A DNA stretch of 64,000 nt, taken from a virus. The position numbers and the translations under genes were made by a program. The notes below the pieces were generated by a model. That model was not told where the DNA came from and ran no database searches. It was given only the letters and a program-made list of their open reading frames with translations. The stretch spans positions 35,176-99,175 of the IMG/VR virus record IMGVR_UViG_3300037504_000682. One strand, written 5' to 3'. Positions 7,730-40,146 of the stretch are shown here, piece after piece; the first letter of the stretch is position 1; each line of letters begins with the position of its first letter.

Positions 7730-8057
7730 TCTCGACCTTGTCCTTGAGTTTTTCGGCCCGGCGCTCCTGGGCCCGCTTTTTCCAGAGCTGGCCGGCGATC
7801 ATCGGTCCGCCGGTCAGCAGGTGACTGATAATCGGCTGTACGGCCACAAACCAGGGGTTGACCGGATCGCCCGACAGTAAAATGGTCAGGATGGCGGCCA
7901 CGGTGCCGATGTCGGTCCAGCCGTCGCCGATCACCACGCTGAGCCAGGTCCAACCCTGCTCAAATGAATTATGGTAAATATAGACCGCGTAGCCGATGCC
8001 GCCGGCCAGGAGTAGGGACCAGATTGCAATCAGGATGGATAATGTCGTCGCTGTCAT
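7716..8057 (-). CDS. Membrane protein
   Basis: Several hydrophobic segments from MTATTLSILIAIW; start moved to ATG 8057. Confidence 0.65.
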   Translation of the reverse strand: MTATTLSILIAIWSLLLAGGIGYAVYIYHNSFEQGWTWLSVVIGDGWTDIGTVAAILTILLSGDPVNPWFVAVQPIISHLLTGGPMIAGQLWKKRAQERRAEKLKDKVENGEQ

Positions 8058-8290
8058 AAAAAAACCTTTTTTCTGATTAAAATTTGAATTTAATTTGGTT
8101 AGCCTGGATTTTTCGGAATCCGTGATAGAATGAGTCTGATCCTTAACAACCCGGCCTGCCGCCCCTACGACAGGCCGGACTTTTTCATTGGGCCGCCAAC
8201 GGTTGGCGACGGGGGCGGCCCAATTCCTCCTCCGTTTTGTGTATATAATGGTGTATCTATCAACCAGTACCAAAGTACCAGGAGGAGAAA

Positions 8291-8335
8291 ATGAAACCTC
8301 AATTAAAACCCGTTAGGAGGTCGATTAATCTATGA
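8291..8335 (+). CDS. 14-aa upstream ORF (MKPQLKPVRRSINL) overlapping integrase start
   Basis: GGAGGAG RBS at 8281; its TGA overlaps integrase ATG (ATGA). Confidence 0.4.
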   Translation: MKPQLKPVRRSINL

Positions 8336-9237
8336 AAAGGTGGGACCGATTAATCGACCGTTTCGCTACCGGCAAGGCCGTCCGCCGCAAGCCGGTGACC
8401 GTCGAGTGGTATCGCCAAAGGCTCAGTCACTGGGCCGAATTCACAACTAGCCGCAAGCTCAAGCCCAAAAAAGTAAAAGCTAAACATCTTGACAAGTTCT
8501 TTGCCGGCCTTAGAGAGGCCGGATACACCGCCAATACCATCAAAGGCACCGAAACCGCCCTTCGGACTTTTTTCGGCTGGTTGGTCCGCCGGGGCAAGAT
8601 GAAGCGCAATCCGTTCGACCGCTTCGAGCCGGTTGAGGTTCCCCGCCAGTCGCAGCCGATCATCCGGCTGGAGTACGCTTACCGGATGATCCGGGCGGCC
8701 GAAGCCGACGATTCCGTGATCGCCCGCCGGGACGCCGCTATTATGCGCTTCCTGCTCAGCACCGGAGCGCGTAGAGAGGAGGTGGTTTCTGTCAGATGGG
8801 AGTGGCTCGACCTGGCCGGCGGCCTGGTCAAGTTGCGGGGCAAATTCGGCCACGAACGGTTGATTCCACTCGTGGCGACCACCGTCACGGCCCTGGCGAT
8901 CTGGATCGAGGCCCGGCCAGCCAGTGACTGGCTGTTTGTCAGCCTGAAGGCTAACCAGTACAATCAAGTCGGGGACAAGCTGGCGGTCAATACGATCAAC
9001 AAGCTGCTTGACCGCTGGAAAATCGCGGCCGGCCTGCCAGAAGAGGCCGAGGTCAATCCCCACGCCTGGCGACGCAGGTTCGCCACGGAGCTGGCCAAAG
9101 CCGGAGATCCGTTCCGGCTCCAGACCCTGCTGGGTCATCTGGATATGAACACGACAAAAAAATACATCCTCGATCAGCCCGATATTTTGAGGGAGATGAT
9201 CGAGCGCTATGGGCCGGGAATCAAAGGCGATACGTGA
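8332..9237 (+). CDS. int: Tyrosine integrase
   Basis: RDAAI..FLLSTGARREE (R), K, HAWRR (HxxR), LGH, TTKKY; adjacent tRNA fragment. Confidence 0.92.
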   Translation: MKRWDRLIDRFATGKAVRRKPVTVEWYRQRLSHWAEFTTSRKLKPKKVKAKHLDKFFAGLREAGYTANTIKGTETALRTFFGWLVRRGKMKRNPFDRFEPVEVPRQSQPIIRLEYAYRMIRAAEADDSVIARRDAAIMRFLLSTGARREEVVSVRWEWLDLAGGLVKLRGKFGHERLIPLVATTVTALAIWIEARPASDWLFVSLKANQYNQVGDKLAVNTINKLLDRWKIAAGLPEEAEVNPHAWRRRFATELAKAGDPFRLQTLLGHLDMNTTKKYILDQPDILREMIERYGPGIKGDT

Positions 9238-9296
9238 TAATCTCTCACGTACCGCTTGGTTTTTCGAGCAGGTTGCCAACGGGGAGCCTTCGGCAG

Positions 9297-9353
9297 ATGA
9301 TTTAGGATCATGTGCCGAAAGGCGTGCGGGTTCGAGTCCCGCCTTCCCCACTA
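9297..9353 (+). tRNA. 3' portion of tRNA-Leu(TAG), probable attP core (not a complete tRNA)
   Basis: Anticodon arm ATGA-TTTAGGA-TCAT, long variable arm GCC-GAAA-GGC, T arm GCGGG-TTCGAGT-CCCGC, acceptor 3' strand CTTCCCCA; no normal D arm. Confidence 0.85.
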
Positions 9354-9527
9354 ACTGGTGACCTGTTTTTTGTTGCCGGTTCATGAATATAAATCTCCTA
9401 CCCTTCTGAGGGTAGCGTGATTAGTCGCTCGAAAGAGCGGCGAGTGCTGTTGTTCACCCGGGGTTGTTTGGCGACGGGTCCGGGTGAGCGGTTCTGTAGC
9501 TGGCGATTGCCATTACAGAACAAAAGG

Positions 9528-9565
9528 AAGACGCTCCTGCCTCAGTCGGTGGGGGCGTCTTTTTT
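9528..9565. terminator. Intrinsic terminator between att region and repressor
   Basis: AAGACGCTCC...GGGGCGTCTT stem followed by T run. Confidence 0.6.
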
Positions 9566-9566
9566 A

Positions 9567-9800
9567 TTATCCCTTACTTTCGTCTTCTTTGTGCTTTTCC
9601 AGGAATTCAGACAGAGGCACGCCGACGGCATCAGCAATTGCTCGCAGGGTATCCAGGCGAGCTCCGGGCTTGTACCCGTTTTTTACGATACCGTAAGTGT
9701 GACTGTACGACCGGTCGATCTCCCGGCAAAGCCAGTCGATGGTTTTGCCCATCTCGTCAAGACGCTGCTCCAGGAATGTTTTTTGTTCCTCTTGTTCCAT
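9567..9800 (-). CDS. XRE-family HTH regulator (repressor/Cro-like)
   Basis: HTH pattern ending RLDTLRAIADAVGVPLSEF. Confidence 0.8.
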   Translation of the reverse strand: MEQEEQKTFLEQRLDEMGKTIDWLCREIDRSYSHTYGIVKNGYKPGARLDTLRAIADAVGVPLSEFLEKHKEDESKG

Positions 9801-9874
9801 AATAGCGGTGGCCAGCATCAACAGCACTCTCCTTTCTGTTTGGTTTGGGCCGCCCCTGGGCGACCGTTTCTAAG

Positions 9875-9903
9875 ATAGTATCACAGCTTTCCGAGCTGGT
9901 CAA
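9875..9903 (-). promoter_or_regulatory. Sigma70-type promoter for XRE gene
   Basis: Minus strand TTGACC-17 bp-TACTAT with extended TG. Confidence 0.6.
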
Positions 9904-9909
9904 GACAGT

Positions 9910-9929
9910 ATATACACTTCACTATATAT
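9910..9929. promoter_or_regulatory. Operator-like 20-bp dyad, copy 1
   Basis: ATATACACT-tc-ACTATATAT; consensus ATATACACT-N2-AGTGTATAT. Confidence 0.6.
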
Positions 9930-10002
9930 TTTAAGGATTTCTCAGAACGCACGTTGAGAAGTCCGTCAAAATCGGTTATACTGGACAAAAACGAGGTGGA
10001 TA

Positions 10003-10713
10003 ATGCTTGAAGAGATCAAAAACGATCGCATCACCCTGATTCTTTCGGTTGTCTTCGTCCTGCTCTTGTGCGTTAGTGTTGGTATGGTTGGCCTGCTCGG
10101 TTTTTTATGGCTCAACCGTTCGGCCGAAGTGGCCGGCCCGCCGCCGGCCGAGTCCGCGGACTCCGTTACTGGCGACGAATTACCGCCACCCGCCGAAGAT
10201 GCGCAGCCTACCGAGGAGGCCCCACCCCCGGCCGGGCCGGTGGCCGATCAGCCCCAGGAGCCAGCCCAGCCCCCGGCCGAGATGACCGAGGGGGTCCAGC
10301 AGGCTTATCTCGCCCTGGTGACCTACGATTCCACCCTGGCGTTACTTTCCGAATTGCCCGGCCGTCCGGCCGACAGCCCGGAAGCCATTGGCGAGCGGCT
10401 GGGGGTCGTGATCGGAGCGACGGCCATCCTGGAGGCCGTATCCCAGAAGCTGGAGCAGGAGCCGCCGCCGGGCTTTGAGCCGGCCTGGGAAACGGCCCGG
10501 CAGTCGATACCAGTCACCCAGGGGGCACTGGCCGCCTGGTCCGATCAGGAAGTCAACCTGTCTCAAATGGCTGAGCAGTTGCCGTATACCCTGGTCGACC
10601 AGGCCGTCGACCAGGCCGACCGGGCCCTGGTGGAGCAGTACGGCGGCAGCCAGGCCGATCTGGACCGGATGCGAGCCGAAGCCGAAGCGAAGTTGGTGGA
10701 AGCTCTGGAGTAA
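10003..10713 (+). CDS. Membrane-anchored protein (possible superinfection-exclusion function, unverified)
   Basis: N-terminal TM helix, Pro-rich linker, in lysogeny module, followed by terminator. Confidence 0.7.
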   Translation: MLEEIKNDRITLILSVVFVLLLCVSVGMVGLLGFLWLNRSAEVAGPPPAESADSVTGDELPPPAEDAQPTEEAPPPAGPVADQPQEPAQPPAEMTEGVQQAYLALVTYDSTLALLSELPGRPADSPEAIGERLGVVIGATAILEAVSQKLEQEPPPGFEPAWETARQSIPVTQGALAAWSDQEVNLSQMAEQLPYTLVDQAVDQADRALVEQYGGSQADLDRMRAEAEAKLVEALE

Positions 10714-14778: not shown

Positions 14779-15777
14779 ATGATAGGTTATCTGGTAATCT
14801 GGCGCATGGCCGACGTGGCCGCGCCATACGACGACCTTGAAGAGCTGGCCGGCGCGGTGGGCTTCGACCTGGACTACATCCCCAGCCCGCCGCAGCCCCG
14901 CCACGCCTGGGAGAAGGCGACGAACCTCAAACGGCAGAAGTTGATCGTGCCGGAGGCCTACACCGCCCAGGTCAAAGCCAAGTACAGTTGCGAGCCGGCG
15001 GTGGTAGCCGAGACCAAGATTATCTCTTCCACCACCCGGCACCTGGTCCGCTACATCATCGTCAAGGGGGCCGACAAGCGGGACAAGCAGCTAGATATGA
15101 AGTCGGTGGCCGTCTTGAAGTACGACGACGACCGGCTGGACGACGCCGATAAGTTCGTCGGTCTCTACCATCCCGACTACGACCCCAGTGGAGCCACCAA
15201 CGGCAACATTCCGGCCCTGATCCACCGGATGCAGACGGAGTACCAGCGCCAGCTAAGTATGGCCGATGGTCAGGACGTGCGTTACAAAATCCGCTCCTAC
15301 CTGGAGAAACTGAGCGCCACCTGCCTGGCCGATGGGACCTACTTCATCCCCGGCGGGGTGGTCGGGGTCCAATCCAAGCTGGATAGCCTCCAGGCCTTTA
15401 TCCTGGGCCTCCAGGAGTGGAAGGTGACCGACAGCGCCCTGACCTGCCAGGTCTACAAGGTGGACGACGACGGCAGCGCCATTAGCCAGCGCAACCGGGC
15501 CGAGGTGGCCGAGGGGGTGATCCGGCAGTTCAAGACCCGGCTCACCTCGACGATGGAGGCCCTGACCACGCCTGATAAGCGGGGCCAGCTGGCCACCCAG
15601 CGGCGGGTCGAGCAGGCCTCGGCCGACTTCCTGGAGATCAAATCATCAATCAAACTGTACCAAGAGACGCTGGGCGAGGAGATGCAAGCCCTGGCCGATA
15701 TGCTCCATATGTGCCAGACGGCGATGTTCACCGCCCACGATAAGCTAGAGGAGAGCACCGATGCACACTCAAATTAA
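14779..15777 (+). CDS. DUF6744/DUF3150-like coiled-coil protein preceding MoxR-VWA
   Basis: Start ATG 14779 after AGGAG; GYLVIW...P.P..AWEKAT...GTYFIP pattern. Confidence 0.55.
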   Translation: MIGYLVIWRMADVAAPYDDLEELAGAVGFDLDYIPSPPQPRHAWEKATNLKRQKLIVPEAYTAQVKAKYSCEPAVVAETKIISSTTRHLVRYIIVKGADKRDKQLDMKSVAVLKYDDDRLDDADKFVGLYHPDYDPSGATNGNIPALIHRMQTEYQRQLSMADGQDVRYKIRSYLEKLSATCLADGTYFIPGGVVGVQSKLDSLQAFILGLQEWKVTDSALTCQVYKVDDDGSAISQRNRAEVAEGVIRQFKTRLTSTMEALTTPDKRGQLATQRRVEQASADFLEIKSSIKLYQETLGEEMQALADMLHMCQTAMFTAHDKLEESTDAHSN

Positions 15778-16996
15778 TGGTCGTACCATCACACTCACCC
15801 AGCCGGCCCGCCCTATTCGCGCCCTCCTGGCCGGCCGGGCCTGGCAGACCGACGAGCAGCCGGCCGATGGCCCGGCCGACCTGGCCCAGGTATCAAACGA
15901 CCTGCAAGCCCTGTGGGGTGAGCTTGAGGCCAAGTTCATCGACCGCTCCGAACTGATCGAGGCCGCCCTGACGGCTCTTGTGGCCGGCGAGCACACCTTC
16001 GTCTACGGCCCGCCGGGGACGGCCAAGACGGCGGTGATCGAGACCCTGGCCGCCGGGATCGGCGGCACCTTTGCCGAGCGGCAGATCACGGCCGAAACCA
16101 CCACCGACGAGGTATTCGGACCCATCGACGCTGTGGCCTTCAGCCAGGGCCAGTACACCCGCCGTTGGGCCGGGATTGCCGTAGCCGACGTCTTCTACAT
16201 CAACGAGGTCTGGGAGGCCTCCTCGACCGTGACTAACATTTTCAAGACGGCGCTTGAGAGCCGCAAGGTCCACGACGGCGACGTGGAGCGGGCCATCCCC
16301 CTCCTGTCTGCCATCGCCGACAGCAACCACGTCCCGACCGACAAAAACCAGCAGGCCGACTGGGATCGATTCCTGGTCCGGCTGGCGGTGGGCTACATCC
16401 GGGACGCGGGCCTGTTTGATCTGATGCTGACGGCCGATGCCGGCGGCACCCGGCCCTTCTACCCGGATCTGACCCCGGACCACCTGCGGCTGACGGCCGC
16501 CGCCGCTGAGCTGATGGCCCTTAACCCGCCGGCCGACCTCAAGGAAGTGCTGGTCAGCCTGTGGCGGGAGCTGGGCCAGAACGGTCGCAGCGTCTCCGAC
16601 CGGCGCTGGCGAAAGACCCTGAAGCTGGCCTGTGCGGCCGCCCTACTTGAAGGGGTCGACCCTGAACCGCGCCACCTGGCCGTGGGTCGCTGGACGCTCT
16701 GGAACGAGCTGGACGAGCGGGAAGAGGTGGCCAACCTGGTGATGAGCCAGACCGATCCCCTGGCCGGGGAGGTGCTGGACGCCGAGGCCCTGCTGGCCGA
16801 TCTCAAAAAGGCCCGGGACAGCATCGCCCGGGGTGATATGATGGCCCGGCAGGAAGTGATCAGCCGGGGCCGGAAATTGTCGAAGCAGGCTCAGGAATTG
16901 ATCGACCGGGGAGCCAACGGCTACACCGGCCGGCTCCAGACCGTGATCGAGCAGGCGGATCAGGTCTGGGAAGAAGTCCTGGATTGGAAGGTGTAA
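15761..16996 (+). CDS. MoxR/RavA-family AAA+ ATPase
   Basis: GEH...GPPGTAKT, DEVFGP, DRF, VSDRRWRK. Confidence 0.88.
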   Translation: MHTQINGRTITLTQPARPIRALLAGRAWQTDEQPADGPADLAQVSNDLQALWGELEAKFIDRSELIEAALTALVAGEHTFVYGPPGTAKTAVIETLAAGIGGTFAERQITAETTTDEVFGPIDAVAFSQGQYTRRWAGIAVADVFYINEVWEASSTVTNIFKTALESRKVHDGDVERAIPLLSAIADSNHVPTDKNQQADWDRFLVRLAVGYIRDAGLFDLMLTADAGGTRPFYPDLTPDHLRLTAAAAELMALNPPADLKEVLVSLWRELGQNGRSVSDRRWRKTLKLACAAALLEGVDPEPRHLAVGRWTLWNELDEREEVANLVMSQTDPLAGEVLDAEALLADLKKARDSIARGDMMARQEVISRGRKLSKQAQELIDRGANGYTGRLQTVIEQADQVWEEVLDWKV

Positions 16997-16997
16997 G

Positions 16998-18554
16998 ATG
17001 ACCAGACTGTGGCGAATTAAGGACGTTGAATCGATCTTTGAGGCCAACCGCTTCGATCTGGCCGACTACCGCCAGGCGGTGGGAGCTTACCCCCGCCTCT
17101 CGACGGCAAACAGCCGGGCCCGGGATGAGCTGGGCGGCGGCCAGCCGGCTCAGGACGCCTTCCTGGACCTGTACAAGGCGGCTCCCCGCCTGGCCGAACC
17201 CTGCCCAGCTGCCCTCTCCGGTCTGCGGCAGCTGGTCGAGCGGGGCCGGCAGACCCCGGAGTACCAGAAGCTCCGGGCCGGCAGCGTGGGCGATCTGGTC
17301 AGCGCGGCGGTGGGGGCCGAGGTCTACGTCGACCGGGTGATGAAGCACCTGCCCGATGAGGTCAAAGAGGCGATCAAGCAGCAGTCGGTCGCCCAGAAGA
17401 AGGCCGACGAGGCCCACCGGCAGGCCCAGGCGGCCCGAGATTTCTCCGAGCTGCTGGGGCAGATAATGGAGCAGACCGACGACCCGGCCCGCCTGCGGGA
17501 TTACGAGCAGCAGCTGCCGCAGGCCACCTATCAACAAGAAGCGGCCGAGGCCCGGGCCCAGGAGATGCAGGCGGCAGCCGACGAGTTTAAGGCCGCAGCC
17601 GATGAGGCAATGGCCGGCCACGAGGCCCAGGTCACCGCCGCCCTCAACCAGGCCGCCGGCCAGGCGGCCCAGGAGGGACAGCAGGTCAGCCAGGTGGTGC
17701 GAGGCTTCAGCCAGGCCGCCGGCGGAAGCGGGGAGTACGTCGACCCTGAGCAGGTCCGGGGCGTTATGGACCTGATGGCCCGTCAGCCCAACCTCCAGGA
17801 GCTGGCCGAGCTTCTGGGCTGGGCCCGGCGGATGGTCCGGGCCGAGTGGCGAAAGAGCCCCCGGGGCCGGACGGAGCTGACCGGCTACCGCAAGCAGGCC
17901 CTGGTCCCGTCCCGGATGGCCACGGCCGAGATGGCCCGGATGGTTTCGCCGGCGGCAGCGATCCGCCAGGACTGGCAGCGGCGGGCGGTCGATAACGCCA
18001 TTATGCACCGCCAGTATGAAGGCGAGAGCCAGGAGGGCCGGGGGCCGCTGGTGATGGTCCGGGATGAGAGCGGCTCGATGGAGGGAGCGCCCCACGCCCT
18101 GGCCGTGGCCCTGGAGTGGGCCCTGCTGGAGATCGCCCGGCGGGACGGCCGGCCGTTTGTCTGCATCCCCTTCTCGGGGGCGGGGCAGTCTGAAATCTGG
18201 CGAGCCCCGGAGGCGGGCAAGCCGGATATGGAGAGCCTGCTTCACCACCTGGGTCACTTCTACGGCGGTGGGACCGAGCCGTATAACCCACTGGCGGCGG
18301 CCCTGGATGTGATCGAGGCGGATGACCTGAAGGCCGACGTGCTGCTGCTCACCGATGCCGACTTTGCCTCACCCCCGGCCGACTTTATGGAGCGACTGGA
18401 CGAGGTTCGCTCCGGCCGGCCGGTTAAGATGGTCTCGGTCGTGATTGGGGCCGGGGGCCATCAGGCCCGGAAGTTCAGCGACAAGGTCATTTTTGTGGGT
18501 GACCTACTGGCCGACCGGGAGAAGCTGGCCGGGGCTGTGGGGGGGGTGGTCTAG
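16998..18554 (+). CDS. VWA-domain protein (ViaA-like partner)
   Basis: MIDAS DESGS, GGGT, LLTDAD. Confidence 0.88.
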   Translation: MTRLWRIKDVESIFEANRFDLADYRQAVGAYPRLSTANSRARDELGGGQPAQDAFLDLYKAAPRLAEPCPAALSGLRQLVERGRQTPEYQKLRAGSVGDLVSAAVGAEVYVDRVMKHLPDEVKEAIKQQSVAQKKADEAHRQAQAARDFSELLGQIMEQTDDPARLRDYEQQLPQATYQQEAAEARAQEMQAAADEFKAAADEAMAGHEAQVTAALNQAAGQAAQEGQQVSQVVRGFSQAAGGSGEYVDPEQVRGVMDLMARQPNLQELAELLGWARRMVRAEWRKSPRGRTELTGYRKQALVPSRMATAEMARMVSPAAAIRQDWQRRAVDNAIMHRQYEGESQEGRGPLVMVRDESGSMEGAPHALAVALEWALLEIARRDGRPFVCIPFSGAGQSEIWRAPEAGKPDMESLLHHLGHFYGGGTEPYNPLAAALDVIEADDLKADVLLLTDADFASPPADFMERLDEVRSGRPVKMVSVVIGAGGHQARKFSDKVIFVGDLLADREKLAGAVGGVV

Positions 18555-33652: not shown

Positions 33653-33973
33653 ATGAAAATCACCGATGCCAGATGGACCGAAGCCAGCAACGGCCTGCCG
33701 CTGCTGAAACTGAAAATCAACGGAGTAGAGGTCATCATCGACCCGGCCCAGAAAGCGATTTCTGAAGGAGTAGTGTTTTTGACGACGCCGCCCGAACATC
33801 TTGACCTGCTGCCGGAGATTACCATCCCGGGGGACAAGAGCGACAACCGGGGCTCGATCACCACCAACCAGGCCACAAGAGACAGGAGGATACTCAGGCT
33901 GACCAAGGAGTTCCTGGAGGCCGCCCAGAAGGACGATTTCGAGCCGGGGCCGGTGGCCCTGGAGGAAGAGTAA
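33653..33973 (+). CDS. Small acidic protein, candidate immunity protein for the MuF effector
   Basis: Directly downstream of MuF fusion; own TGaTATACT (-10 near 33635-33643); followed by terminator. Confidence 0.55.
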   Translation: MKITDARWTEASNGLPLLKLKINGVEVIIDPAQKAISEGVVFLTTPPEHLDLLPEITIPGDKSDNRGSITTNQATRDRRILRLTKEFLEAAQKDDFEPGPVALEEE

Positions 33974-33999
33974 AGCCGGGGGCAAGCCCGGCTTTTTTT
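33973..33999 (+). terminator. Intrinsic terminator
   Basis: AAGCCGGG...CCCGGCTT + T run. Confidence 0.8.
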
Positions 34000-34007
34000 A
34001 TTCCTTA

Positions 34008-34290
34008 GAGAAAATGGATGGCCTTATTTGAGAATAGGCCGACTTGTTTTGTCTGGCCTGGCGGGAAAAATAGGCCGGCTTATAGTGGTCGCTATTTCTC
34101 GGGTGGCCGGAGAGAAATAGAGAGGGTTATAGTTCGACTTGTTTGTCTCGGGTCGCCCGAGAAATTAGCGGAGCTTGTTTGGGAATGAAGGGGCGTTAAT
34201 TTGTGGCCGGGTGGAGAGAAATTAACGATCGGTAAAGGGAGGATAGAGTAGCTTGTTTTATCTGGTCACCAGGGCCTGGCGACCAGAGTT
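34008..34290. repeat. Array B of ~48-bp degenerate dyad elements (about 5 units)
   Basis: Same TA-N8-TR / TTTYTC...GAGAAA grammar as 21297-21680. Confidence 0.7.
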
Positions 34291-34292
34291 TA

Positions 34293-34339
34293 GAACGCGT
34301 GTTCAAAACTGTACAGCGGACTCCTCGGTATGGTAAAAT
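34293..34339 (+). promoter_or_regulatory. SOS-box-like dyad and extended -10 upstream of CRISPR array
   Basis: GAAC-GCGT-GTTC at 34293-34304; TGgTAAAAT at 34331-34339. Confidence 0.55.
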
Positions 34340-34373
34340 GGGATGGAAGTGTAACCCAACCGGCAACCGAAGT

Positions 34374-34587
34374 CTATTCCCCACACGCGTGGGGGTGAAC
34401 CGAGAACCCGCTGCGGCCGGATGAGCAGGAATCAGCTATTCCCCACACGCGTGGGGGTGAACCGGGCCAGCAGCTGGCCGGGGCGGCCTGGGCCAAGCTA
34501 TTCCCCACACGCGTGGGGGTGAACCGGGGTCCCCGCTTTTGGCCAGTTCGGTCGCGAACTATTCCCTACATACGTGGGGGCGGCGGG
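34374..34587 (+). CRISPR. Type I-E-like mini CRISPR array: 3 identical repeats + 1 degenerate, 3 spacers, no cas genes in window
   Basis: CTATTCCCCACACGCGTGGGGGTGAACCG (29 nt) at 34374, 34436, 34498; degenerate copy at 34559; spacers 33, 33, 32 nt. Confidence 0.95.
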
Positions 34588-34630
34588 TTACACAACGAGA
34601 CTGGAAGTGTAACCGATACTTGGAGGGGAA

Positions 34631-38885: not shown

Positions 38886-39187
38886 CAGTAACCGTATCGC
38901 TCAACAGGGATTACAAAATCTTCCCTATCGGCGGCAATATGCCCGGCCGGGAATGGGTCGACTTTTGGCCGACCTTCATCCCCCTCAAGTCCACTCAGGG
39001 TATCTGGGGTGAAATGTCGGAGCCGCCCCGGGATGGAGACGTTATCGCCGCCGATATGGAGTCCGGCCGGCGGGCCTTGTTTGTCGTTCACGGTATGAGA
39101 AGCCTTGATCCGCCCGACTTTTTTTGTGAAGCCTCATTTGTCGGCTACGAGGACGATAACGAGCTGCCGGAATCGGAGGCCAAATGA
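38882..39187 (+). CDS. Hypothetical protein
   Basis: Coupled ORF. Confidence 0.55.
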   Translation: MTVTVSLNRDYKIFPIGGNMPGREWVDFWPTFIPLKSTQGIWGEMSEPPRDGDVIAADMESGRRALFVVHGMRSLDPPDFFCEASFVGYEDDNELPESEAK

Positions 39188-40146
39188 GTCACCTCCCCGC
39201 CCCCCGCACGTCCACCCCGGCCGCTCTCCAGACCGTCATCACCCTATGGGCCGACCACGTCACCGACCCGGCCAGCCCCCGCCGGCGGGACCTGCTGCGG
39301 GACAAGACCAAGGCCGCGCTCGACTTCTTCGAGTTCGCCGGCCGGCCCCCGGCCGCCGTTGGCCCGGTCGAGGTCAAGAATTGGCAGGCCGAACTTGAGG
39401 CCCAGGGGCTGGCCACGTCCACGATCTACGCCAAGATCAGCCGGGTGTCATCGTTCTATAACTGGGCCATCGAGGCCGGCCACGTGGAGCGCAACCCGGT
39501 CGATGAGGCCCGGCCCCGGGCTCCCCGGCCCTACCAGAGCGAGAGCACCCAGTCCCTGAGCGACGACGACGTGGCCCGGCTGCTGGAGGTGGTCCGGGAG
39601 CGAGACGACCTGGTGGGCCGGCGGGATTACGCGATGCTCACCTTGTACTTCTTCTCCGGCAAGCGCCGGCGGGAGATCGTGCAGCTGCGGGCCGGGGACG
39701 TGCGGATCAAGGGAGAGAAGCTGATCATCCGTTCCCAGGTCAAGGGCGGCGACTACGAAGCCTTTGAGGTCGACAACCCTCTGGCCGTCGAGGCCCTCGC
39801 CGCCTATCTGGCCCGGCGGGGTGTCAGCCTGGCCGACCTGGCCGAGGATGCGCCGCTGTGGGTAGTCAGCCGCAAGGCCGGCAAGTATGCCGGTCGAGCC
39901 ATCAGTAGCCACGGTTTCGTGGCCAATTTGAAGCGGTACGCCAGGGCCGCCGGCCTGGGCGACATCCACCTGCACCAGACCCGGCACACGTTTGCGAGGT
40001 GGGTGGGCGAGGAGAGCGGCAGCCTCCAGGAGGCCCAGGCAGCGCTGGGGCATAGGAACGTGGGGACTACCCGGGTGTATCTGCCCCGGGTGGCGGTGAA
40101 GAAGGATCATTATAGCCAGAAGATTAGCGAAAGGTTGGGATTGTGA
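39184..40146 (+). CDS. Second tyrosine recombinase (Xer/Cre-like)
   Basis: RDYAML...SGKRRREI, VKGG, HQTRH, LGH, TTRVY. Confidence 0.9.
   Translation: MSHLPAPRTSTPAALQTVITLWADHVTDPASPRRRDLLRDKTKAALDFFEFAGRPPAAVGPVEVKNWQAELEAQGLATSTIYAKISRVSSFYNWAIEAGHVERNPVDEARPRAPRPYQSESTQSLSDDDVARLLEVVRERDDLVGRRDYAMLTLYFFSGKRRREIVQLRAGDVRIKGEKLIIRSQVKGGDYEAFEVDNPLAVEALAAYLARRGVSLADLAEDAPLWVVSRKAGKYAGRAISSHGFVANLKRYARAAGLGDIHLHQTRHTFARWVGEESGSLQEAQAALGHRNVGTTRVYLPRVAVKKDHYSQKISERLGL

Follow-up and report, generated by a model that had tools for sequence, protein, structure and literature searches.

Mini-CRISPR arrays carried by viruses have host repeats, are mostly aimed at related viruses, and are found in carriers in which the orthologous locus is mutated (PMC6858448; PMC11656645). 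The virus-borne mini-CRISPR arrays of SPV1 and SPV2 of Saccharolobus are involved in interviral conflict (Medvedeva et al. 2019, PMC6858448), and the mini-arrays of bacteriophages and prophages have been reviewed (PMC11656645). Mini-arrays with partial complementarity to their targets are also known from (pro)phages, namely the regulatory crRNA-like guides (CreA and the I-F/I-E crlRNAs) and prophage mimics (Shmakov et al., bioRxiv 10.1101/2023.03.03.530964; bioRxiv 10.1101/2024.10.29.618823). Phage-borne repeats of the host subtype that are not accompanied by cas genes have been described as Racrs, repeat units that are solitary or aberrant (Camara-Wilpert et al. 2023, PMC10651486).

The locus described here lies in the genome of a temperate, tailed phage of ~99 kb from tidal-flat mud. 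The virus record is 99,175 bp in length and 96% complete (CheckV), and the window, i.e., the whole stretch of 64,000 nt that was analysed and to which all coordinates below refer, corresponds to bases 35176-99175 of the IMG/VR record. The gene set is that of a tailed phage, with a large-terminase nuclease domain, a giant MuF/NUDIX protein, a tape-measure protein and two tyrosine recombinases, one of which is encoded by the integrase gene int (8332-9237, + strand; 301 aa; Pfam Phage_integrase 4.9e-27, with SAM-like N-terminal domains). Two tidal-flat metagenome runs contain the phage; one is the probable source, and in the second the phage is present at low depth. Its GC content is 60% and the GC3 of its codon usage is 0.82. 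To our knowledge, the Chloroflexota phages known so far are few.

With its cas-less CRISPR array the phage locus fits the published class of virus-borne mini-arrays. Like the SPV1/SPV2-type arrays, it is located in a viral genome, lacks cas genes, has few spacers (three), repeats close to those of host-type arrays and its own promoter (a predicted one in the phage), and one spacer has a homologous gene in the carrier itself, where the copy is altered and thus not targeted. It differs from them in that the host system is a bacterial type I-E system of Chloroflexota, that the spacer in question (spacer 3) comes from the catalytic-core segment of an integrase, and that the carrier copy differs at 7/32 positions with synonymous sites saturated, instead of by a few point mutations. 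A further difference is that no target virus for the phage spacers, and no perfect or near-perfect protospacer in related viruses, was found in the collections searched. The CreA and crlRNA guides pair through a contiguous seed (about ten or more PAM-proximal bases) with the promoters of cas or toxin genes, whereas the seed of spacer 3 is interrupted after 2 nt and its partner sequence is late in a coding region, at int codon 250. The Moraxella prophage mini-array is flanked by direct repeats, as is the array of this phage. Racrs are solitary or aberrant units, whereas the phage locus is composed of three canonical repeat-spacer units.

The mini-array occupies positions 34374-34587 (+ strand) and consists of three perfect 29-nt repeats (CTATTCCCCACACGCGTGGGGGTGAACCG, starting at 34374, 34436 and 34498), a degenerate terminal fourth repeat (34559-34587) and three spacers, also given on the + strand: spacer 1 (34403-34435, 33 nt), spacer 2 (34465-34497, 33 nt, 82% GC) and spacer 3 (34527-34558, 32 nt), the reverse complement of which encodes the peptide FATELAKSGDP. 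An array was taken as type I-E if it had a palindromic repeat of 28-29 nt ending in AACCG and spacers of 32-33 nt; the phage array has a CCCCAC/GTGGGG stem, the 3' end GAACCG, a spacing of 61-62 nt and spacers of 32-33 nt. The same repeat type was found in many phyla in a scan of one genome per GTDB species. The closest repeats, identical to the phage repeat at 28 of 29 positions, are those of the arrays in a Leptolinea MAG (L076) and a Caldilineales MAG (L032); Anaerolineales arrays show an identity of 26-27/29. Position 1 of the phage repeat differs from the closest host-type repeats in all three copies. In L076 the array directly follows the genes cse1-cse2-cas7e-cas5e-cas6e-cas1-cas2 (assigned by Pfam to Cse1, Cse2, Cas7e (CT1975), Cas5, Cas6e, Cas1 and Cas2) on the same strand, and this association with a complete I-E operon fixes the subtype and also the direction of transcription, which in the phage is that of the + strand. 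A tblastn search of the 99-kb phage with seven Anaerolineae I-E Cas proteins detected no cas genes (best E = 0.045), and the locus is therefore an orphan mini-array dependent on the Cas proteins of its host. No Rfam family was found at the array, and PHROGs and Pfam give neither a function nor a known anti-CRISPR family for the genes that flank it.

A promoter-like site (34310-34339, + strand) of the sigma-70-like type, TGTACA-18-TAAAAT with the TG of an extended -10 element, is located ~35 nt before the first repeat (one site found versus 0.2 expected). The last bases of the leader (34368-34373) read CGAAGT, similar to the leader-repeat junction of host I-E arrays: CGAAG followed by A, G or T precedes the first repeat in L076 and L032 and in four other host-type loci (L049, L064, L082 and L116). 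As a signal for the integration of spacers, the CGAAGT junction may have been retained; with so short a leader, spacer acquisition in situ is no more than a possibility. The array is flanked by two copies of a 13-bp direct repeat, TGGAAGTGTAACC, the left one at 34344-34356 and the right one at 34602-34614 (both + strand), and an inverted copy, GGGTTACAC (34585-34593), is found immediately past the last array repeat. Together with the inverted copy, this bracketing suggests arrival, or mobility, of the array in the form of a cassette. A 40,575-nt Logan contig of the source run, which covers int, stops at ~34404, two bases inside spacer 1; this end could reflect spacer heterogeneity in the phage population, or a branch of the assembly graph with host arrays that share 28 repeat nucleotides.

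The host is most likely an Anaerolineae-class (Chloroflexota) bacterium with a type I-E system; the phage repeats are identical at 26-28/29 positions to those of Anaerolineae, Caldilineales and Anaerolineales arrays. The L076 genome has a GC content of ~47% versus 60% in the phage, and is thus mismatched in composition despite the 28/29 repeat match; the Anaerolineales loci, with repeat matches of 26-27/29, have a GC content of 60-66%. Sixty bases past the int stop codon begins a 3' fragment of a tRNA-Leu(UAG) gene (9297-9352, + strand), which is 94-96% identical over 54-56 nt to Anaerolineae-class tRNA-Leu(tag) genes and is a probable attP core. It had been proposed that the phage integrates at a tRNA-Leu site; the 3' fragment supports this proposal, and a whole tRNA gene was not found by ARAGORN in either the window or the genome. 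Two genomes marked as unpublished (G728 and G769) underlie none of the conclusions. A 171-nt contig from the second tidal-flat run matches 9297-9351 with zero differences and is a candidate attB. No int homologue was present within 1.5 kb of the best-matching tRNA-Leu genes.

The original prediction was that the reverse complement of spacer 3 aligns without gaps and in frame to int at 9079-9110, with 25/32 identical positions, and this alignment was reproduced at the same coordinates. The imperfect self-protospacer (9079-9113 including the PAM position, - strand) starts with int codon 250 and codes for FATELAKAGDP, between the catalytic residues R247 and H269. The seven mismatches, at spacer positions 3, 6, 10, 11, 21, 24 and 27, were re-derived by hand: five are third-base differences between synonymous codons (GCG/GCC, ACC/ACG, GAA/GAG, GGG/GGA and GAC/GAT, spacer codon first), and two account for the single residue change, AGC (Ser) in the spacer to GCC (Ala) in int. 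The PAM position of the self site reads AAC (GTT on the + strand, 9111-9113). The second-best site for spacer 3 in the whole 99-kb genome has an identity of 21/32. As a control for chance, two null sets of 1000 each (shuffles of spacer 3, and real type I-E spacers) were aligned to the phage genome, and none in either set reached 25/32 (maximum 24); spacer 3 itself reached at best 22/32 when compared with a further 1.36 Mb of loci, among them ~40 distant tyrosine recombinase genes. Since 0/2000 null spacers attain the observed identity and other recombinase loci remain at or below 22/32, the match between spacer 3 and int is real and reflects homology. It is the only above-background self match among the three spacers: spacer 1 has no near-match inside the phage at the DNA or peptide level, and the best self matches of spacer 2 (24/33) are at the background level for such GC-rich sequence, with no near-match at the peptide level.

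How close the source of spacer 3 was to int can be judged from the codons. When the phage peptide FATELAKAGD(P) was back-translated at random with the codon usage of the phage, the resulting sequences were identical to spacer 3 at 24.9 of 32 positions on average, and 60% of the draws reached at least 25/32. Four of the nine codons for the same residue are identical in spacer and int, where 4.2 are expected from codon usage alone. The observed 25/32 is thus practically the back-translation mean, which indicates that synonymous sites are saturated and that no trace of recent common ancestry is left; the similarity between spacer 3 and int is confined to the peptide, where 10/11 residues of a catalytic-core segment agree. 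For the same reason, the claim that the spacer came from a near-relative or sibling phage is not supported, and what had been read as escape by codon choice is ordinary saturated divergence, with no demonstrable adaptation. Derivation from a homologue of int is nevertheless the best explanation of spacer 3, at the family level, given a peptide agreement of 10/11 in a family-specific motif.

This motif, between catalytic H244-x-x-R247 and H269, belongs to the most conserved part of the enzyme. The family consensus at the segment is RFATELA(K/R)AGDPF, and the codons for Pro-Phe are nearly invariant, so that AAC at the PAM position of the self site is what one would expect. A search of 5.8 billion clustered proteins detected ~20 relatives of int with 37-50% identity, one of them named as Chloroflexota. 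For the comparison of the segment, the family was combined with the 150 best representatives obtained when 1.84 billion cluster representatives were searched with a profile, giving 198 proteins. Agreement with FATELAKSGDP at 7/11 or more residues was confined to the narrow integrase family, the remaining 176 proteins (mostly general recombinases) scoring 6/11 or less; the phage int was the single best scorer with 10/11. Serine occurs naturally at the variable position in the family members P0002 (MCP4422024.1), P0005 and P0055. It is defensible to conclude from these comparisons that spacer 3 probably came from an unsampled member of the narrow integrase family, with an overall distance from int that is possibly large; the source could be as distant as the family members with 43-50% identity. 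Searches of virus collections with the single int protein gave no relatives in IMG/VR, and with the family profile only relatives of at most 32% identity to int; relatives among INPHARED phages were at most 30% identical. No member of the family was found with int or the family profile in 401 sampled Chloroflexota genomes and 401 sampled Anaerolineae-class genomes, five candidates being scored per genome.

The original prediction called for a perfect protospacer of spacer 3 in a related integrase. Searches of IMG/VR, JGI metagenome contigs and GTDB genome contigs gave no exact match, and degenerate DNA patterns for every synonymous way of encoding FATELAKxGDP had no match in either IMG/VR or the JGI metagenomes. 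A diverged int was also not found in the two tidal-flat runs when contigs were aligned to 7800-10200 at a likeness of at least 80%, a search in which rare variants are missed since contigs drop them; the contigs recovered on this region were only those of the phage itself and of tRNA genes. The cores of spacers 1 and 2 had no matches in IMG/VR. Among 1482 spacers of related host-type I-E arrays, none equals or resembles a phage spacer and none matches the phage. Fifteen other IMG/VR contigs (L183-L197) have similar I-E repeats, either singly or in arrays of 2-15; the 43 spacers taken from them include no match to the phage, and the phage spacers match none of these contigs. As neither a protospacer nor a variant int was found in the collections searched, spacer 3 may be aimed at a plasmid, a prophage or some other integrative element, instead of a sibling phage, and the data give no support to the proposal that the source element shares the tRNA-Leu att site and competes for it.

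The reading that we favour, with moderate confidence, is that the phage carries a host-type mini-array whose spacer 3 derives from the same integrase family as its own int, and uses it via host Cascade against matching elements. It builds on the array itself, the near-identity of its repeat to those of I-E arrays, the lack of phage cas genes, the family homology of spacer 3 and the attP fragment, and from these we infer expression and loading of crRNA, interference, the kind of element that is targeted and a benefit to the phage. Spacer 3 would have been acquired from the integrase gene of a member of this narrow tyrosine-integrase family, at a site directly after the catalytic H-x-x-R where the adjoining Pro-Phe codon pair would supply the AA of an AAG-type PAM. 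The promoter-driven array would be transcribed in the lysogen or the infected cell, host Cas6e and Cascade would load the crRNA, and Cas3 would destroy an incoming element with a matching integrase, i.e., heterotypic superinfection exclusion of the kind known from other mini-arrays of viruses. The phage's own int would be spared through its divergence. In the type I-E system of E. coli, pairing is required at seed positions 1-5, 7 and 8, and one base in six is flipped out; under these pairing rules the self site has five effective mismatches (3, 10, 11, 21 and 27), a broken seed and a non-canonical PAM. Cutting of the phage's own int is thus not expected, in agreement with the escape that had been proposed, given the seed mismatch at position 3, the four further effective mismatches and the PAM AAC. 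Degenerate targets can still provoke primed adaptation, and if the degenerate self site did so, it would be a liability for the prophage.

A stronger version of the favoured reading holds that the mini-array is an active acquisition site, in which the lineage would maintain a spacer directed at that part of its competitors' integrase which is least mutable and thereby exclude others from the tRNA-Leu(UAG) att site via host Cascade-Cas3. What makes this version conceivable is that the array has retained both a promoter-like site and a leader junction resembling those of hosts, and we consider it quite unlikely; if true, a lysogen would bar every element using that type of integrase, which would amount to CRISPR-based att-site exclusion. 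For the favoured reading itself, the cas-less mini-array strategy of borrowing the host CRISPR machinery would extend to Anaerolineae type I-E systems in tidal-flat sediment, and the integrase-derived spacer would point to conflict between integrative elements. The analysis also carries a caution: a partial match between a spacer and a gene of its carrier, when it falls in a conserved motif, can be fully explained by conservation of the peptide, and such a match should not be taken to indicate a close sibling or adaptive escape.

Other explanations have to be weighed against this reading. The foremost is that the array or its spacers were taken from a host I-E array by recombination, spacer 3 being a record of host immunity against phages with this integrase family, and that the phage draws no benefit from it, or that the array may act as a sink for Cas proteins. 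Such an origin is suggested by the 13-bp direct repeat around the array and by the degenerate terminal repeat, a feature also of the far end of host arrays; direct repeats around a prophage mini-array have been reported (bioRxiv 10.1101/2023.03.03.530964), and leaderless phage mini-arrays, to which the very short leader of this one may be compared, have been suggested to gain spacers by recombination with host arrays (PMC6858448). On the other hand, the array has a promoter-like site of its own and three intact repeats; the deviation at repeat position 1, shared by all copies, sets the array apart from the closest host repeats, and none of the 1482 related host-array spacers (0/1482) links these arrays to the phage. 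Moreover, capture from a host is compatible with later use by the phage. We therefore hold an array that is only carried along to be possible but rather unlikely. A role as RNA decoy or anti-CRISPR, in which the content of the spacers is irrelevant and Racr-like or crlRNA-like repeats either titrate Cas6e and Cas7e or act as repressors of the host cas8e promoter, has precedents, inhibition of host CRISPR being documented for solitary repeat units and for mini-arrays of phages (PMC10651486, PMC11656645), and several of the 15 IMG/VR contigs with similar I-E repeats have them as single units. The canonical repeats and full-length spacers of 32-33 nt lead one to expect normal crRNAs instead, the regions upstream of cse1 in L179-L181, the closest three loci of host type, contain no seed-anchored spacer match, and the integrase homology of spacer 3 would be left unexplained; as the main function a decoy is very unlikely, and such a role in addition to interference is possible.

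Two further explanations concern the match itself. One alternative that had been raised is that the crRNA pairs partly with int of the phage itself and that Cascade, bound there but not cleaving, reduces int expression; it gains some plausibility from the partially complementary crRNA-like guides that exist in type I systems and prophages (bioRxiv 10.1101/2023.03.03.530964) and from the fact that no other self match of any spacer stands above background. However, known guides pair contiguously over ~10-12 PAM-proximal bases and at promoters (bioRxiv 10.1101/2023.03.03.530964), whereas pairing of spacer 3 breaks at position 3, leaving 2 contiguous nucleotides, and its site at codon 250 of 301 is far from the promoter. 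The mismatches, moreover, fall at third codon positions along the whole spacer, and an identity equal to that expected from peptide conservation gives no sign of selection for pairing; tuning of int is in our view extremely unlikely. As to coincidence, an identity of only 25/32 might seem open to it, with 24/32 reached by 0.3-0.5% of null spacers, but none of the 2000 reached 25, the match is in frame, 5/7 mismatches are at third codon positions and the peptide agrees at 10/11 residues in a family-specific motif, and a match by chance is scarcely credible.

Some other features of the window are recorded here. The second tyrosine recombinase (39184-40146, 320 aa), classified by PHROG as an integrase, is encoded in the middle of the genome. 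Its identity to int is only 23% and spacer 3 does not match it; a resolvase, an Xer-like protein or part of a nested element are possible identities. The early region (15761-18554) encodes a MoxR-type AAA+ ATPase (Pfam bpMoxR), followed by a protein with a weak vWA match. The region 33972-34290 comprises a strong terminator-like hairpin (33972-33995) and, after it and immediately upstream of the array promoter, a non-coding stretch that contains repeated GAGAAAT...GCTTGTTT-like units.
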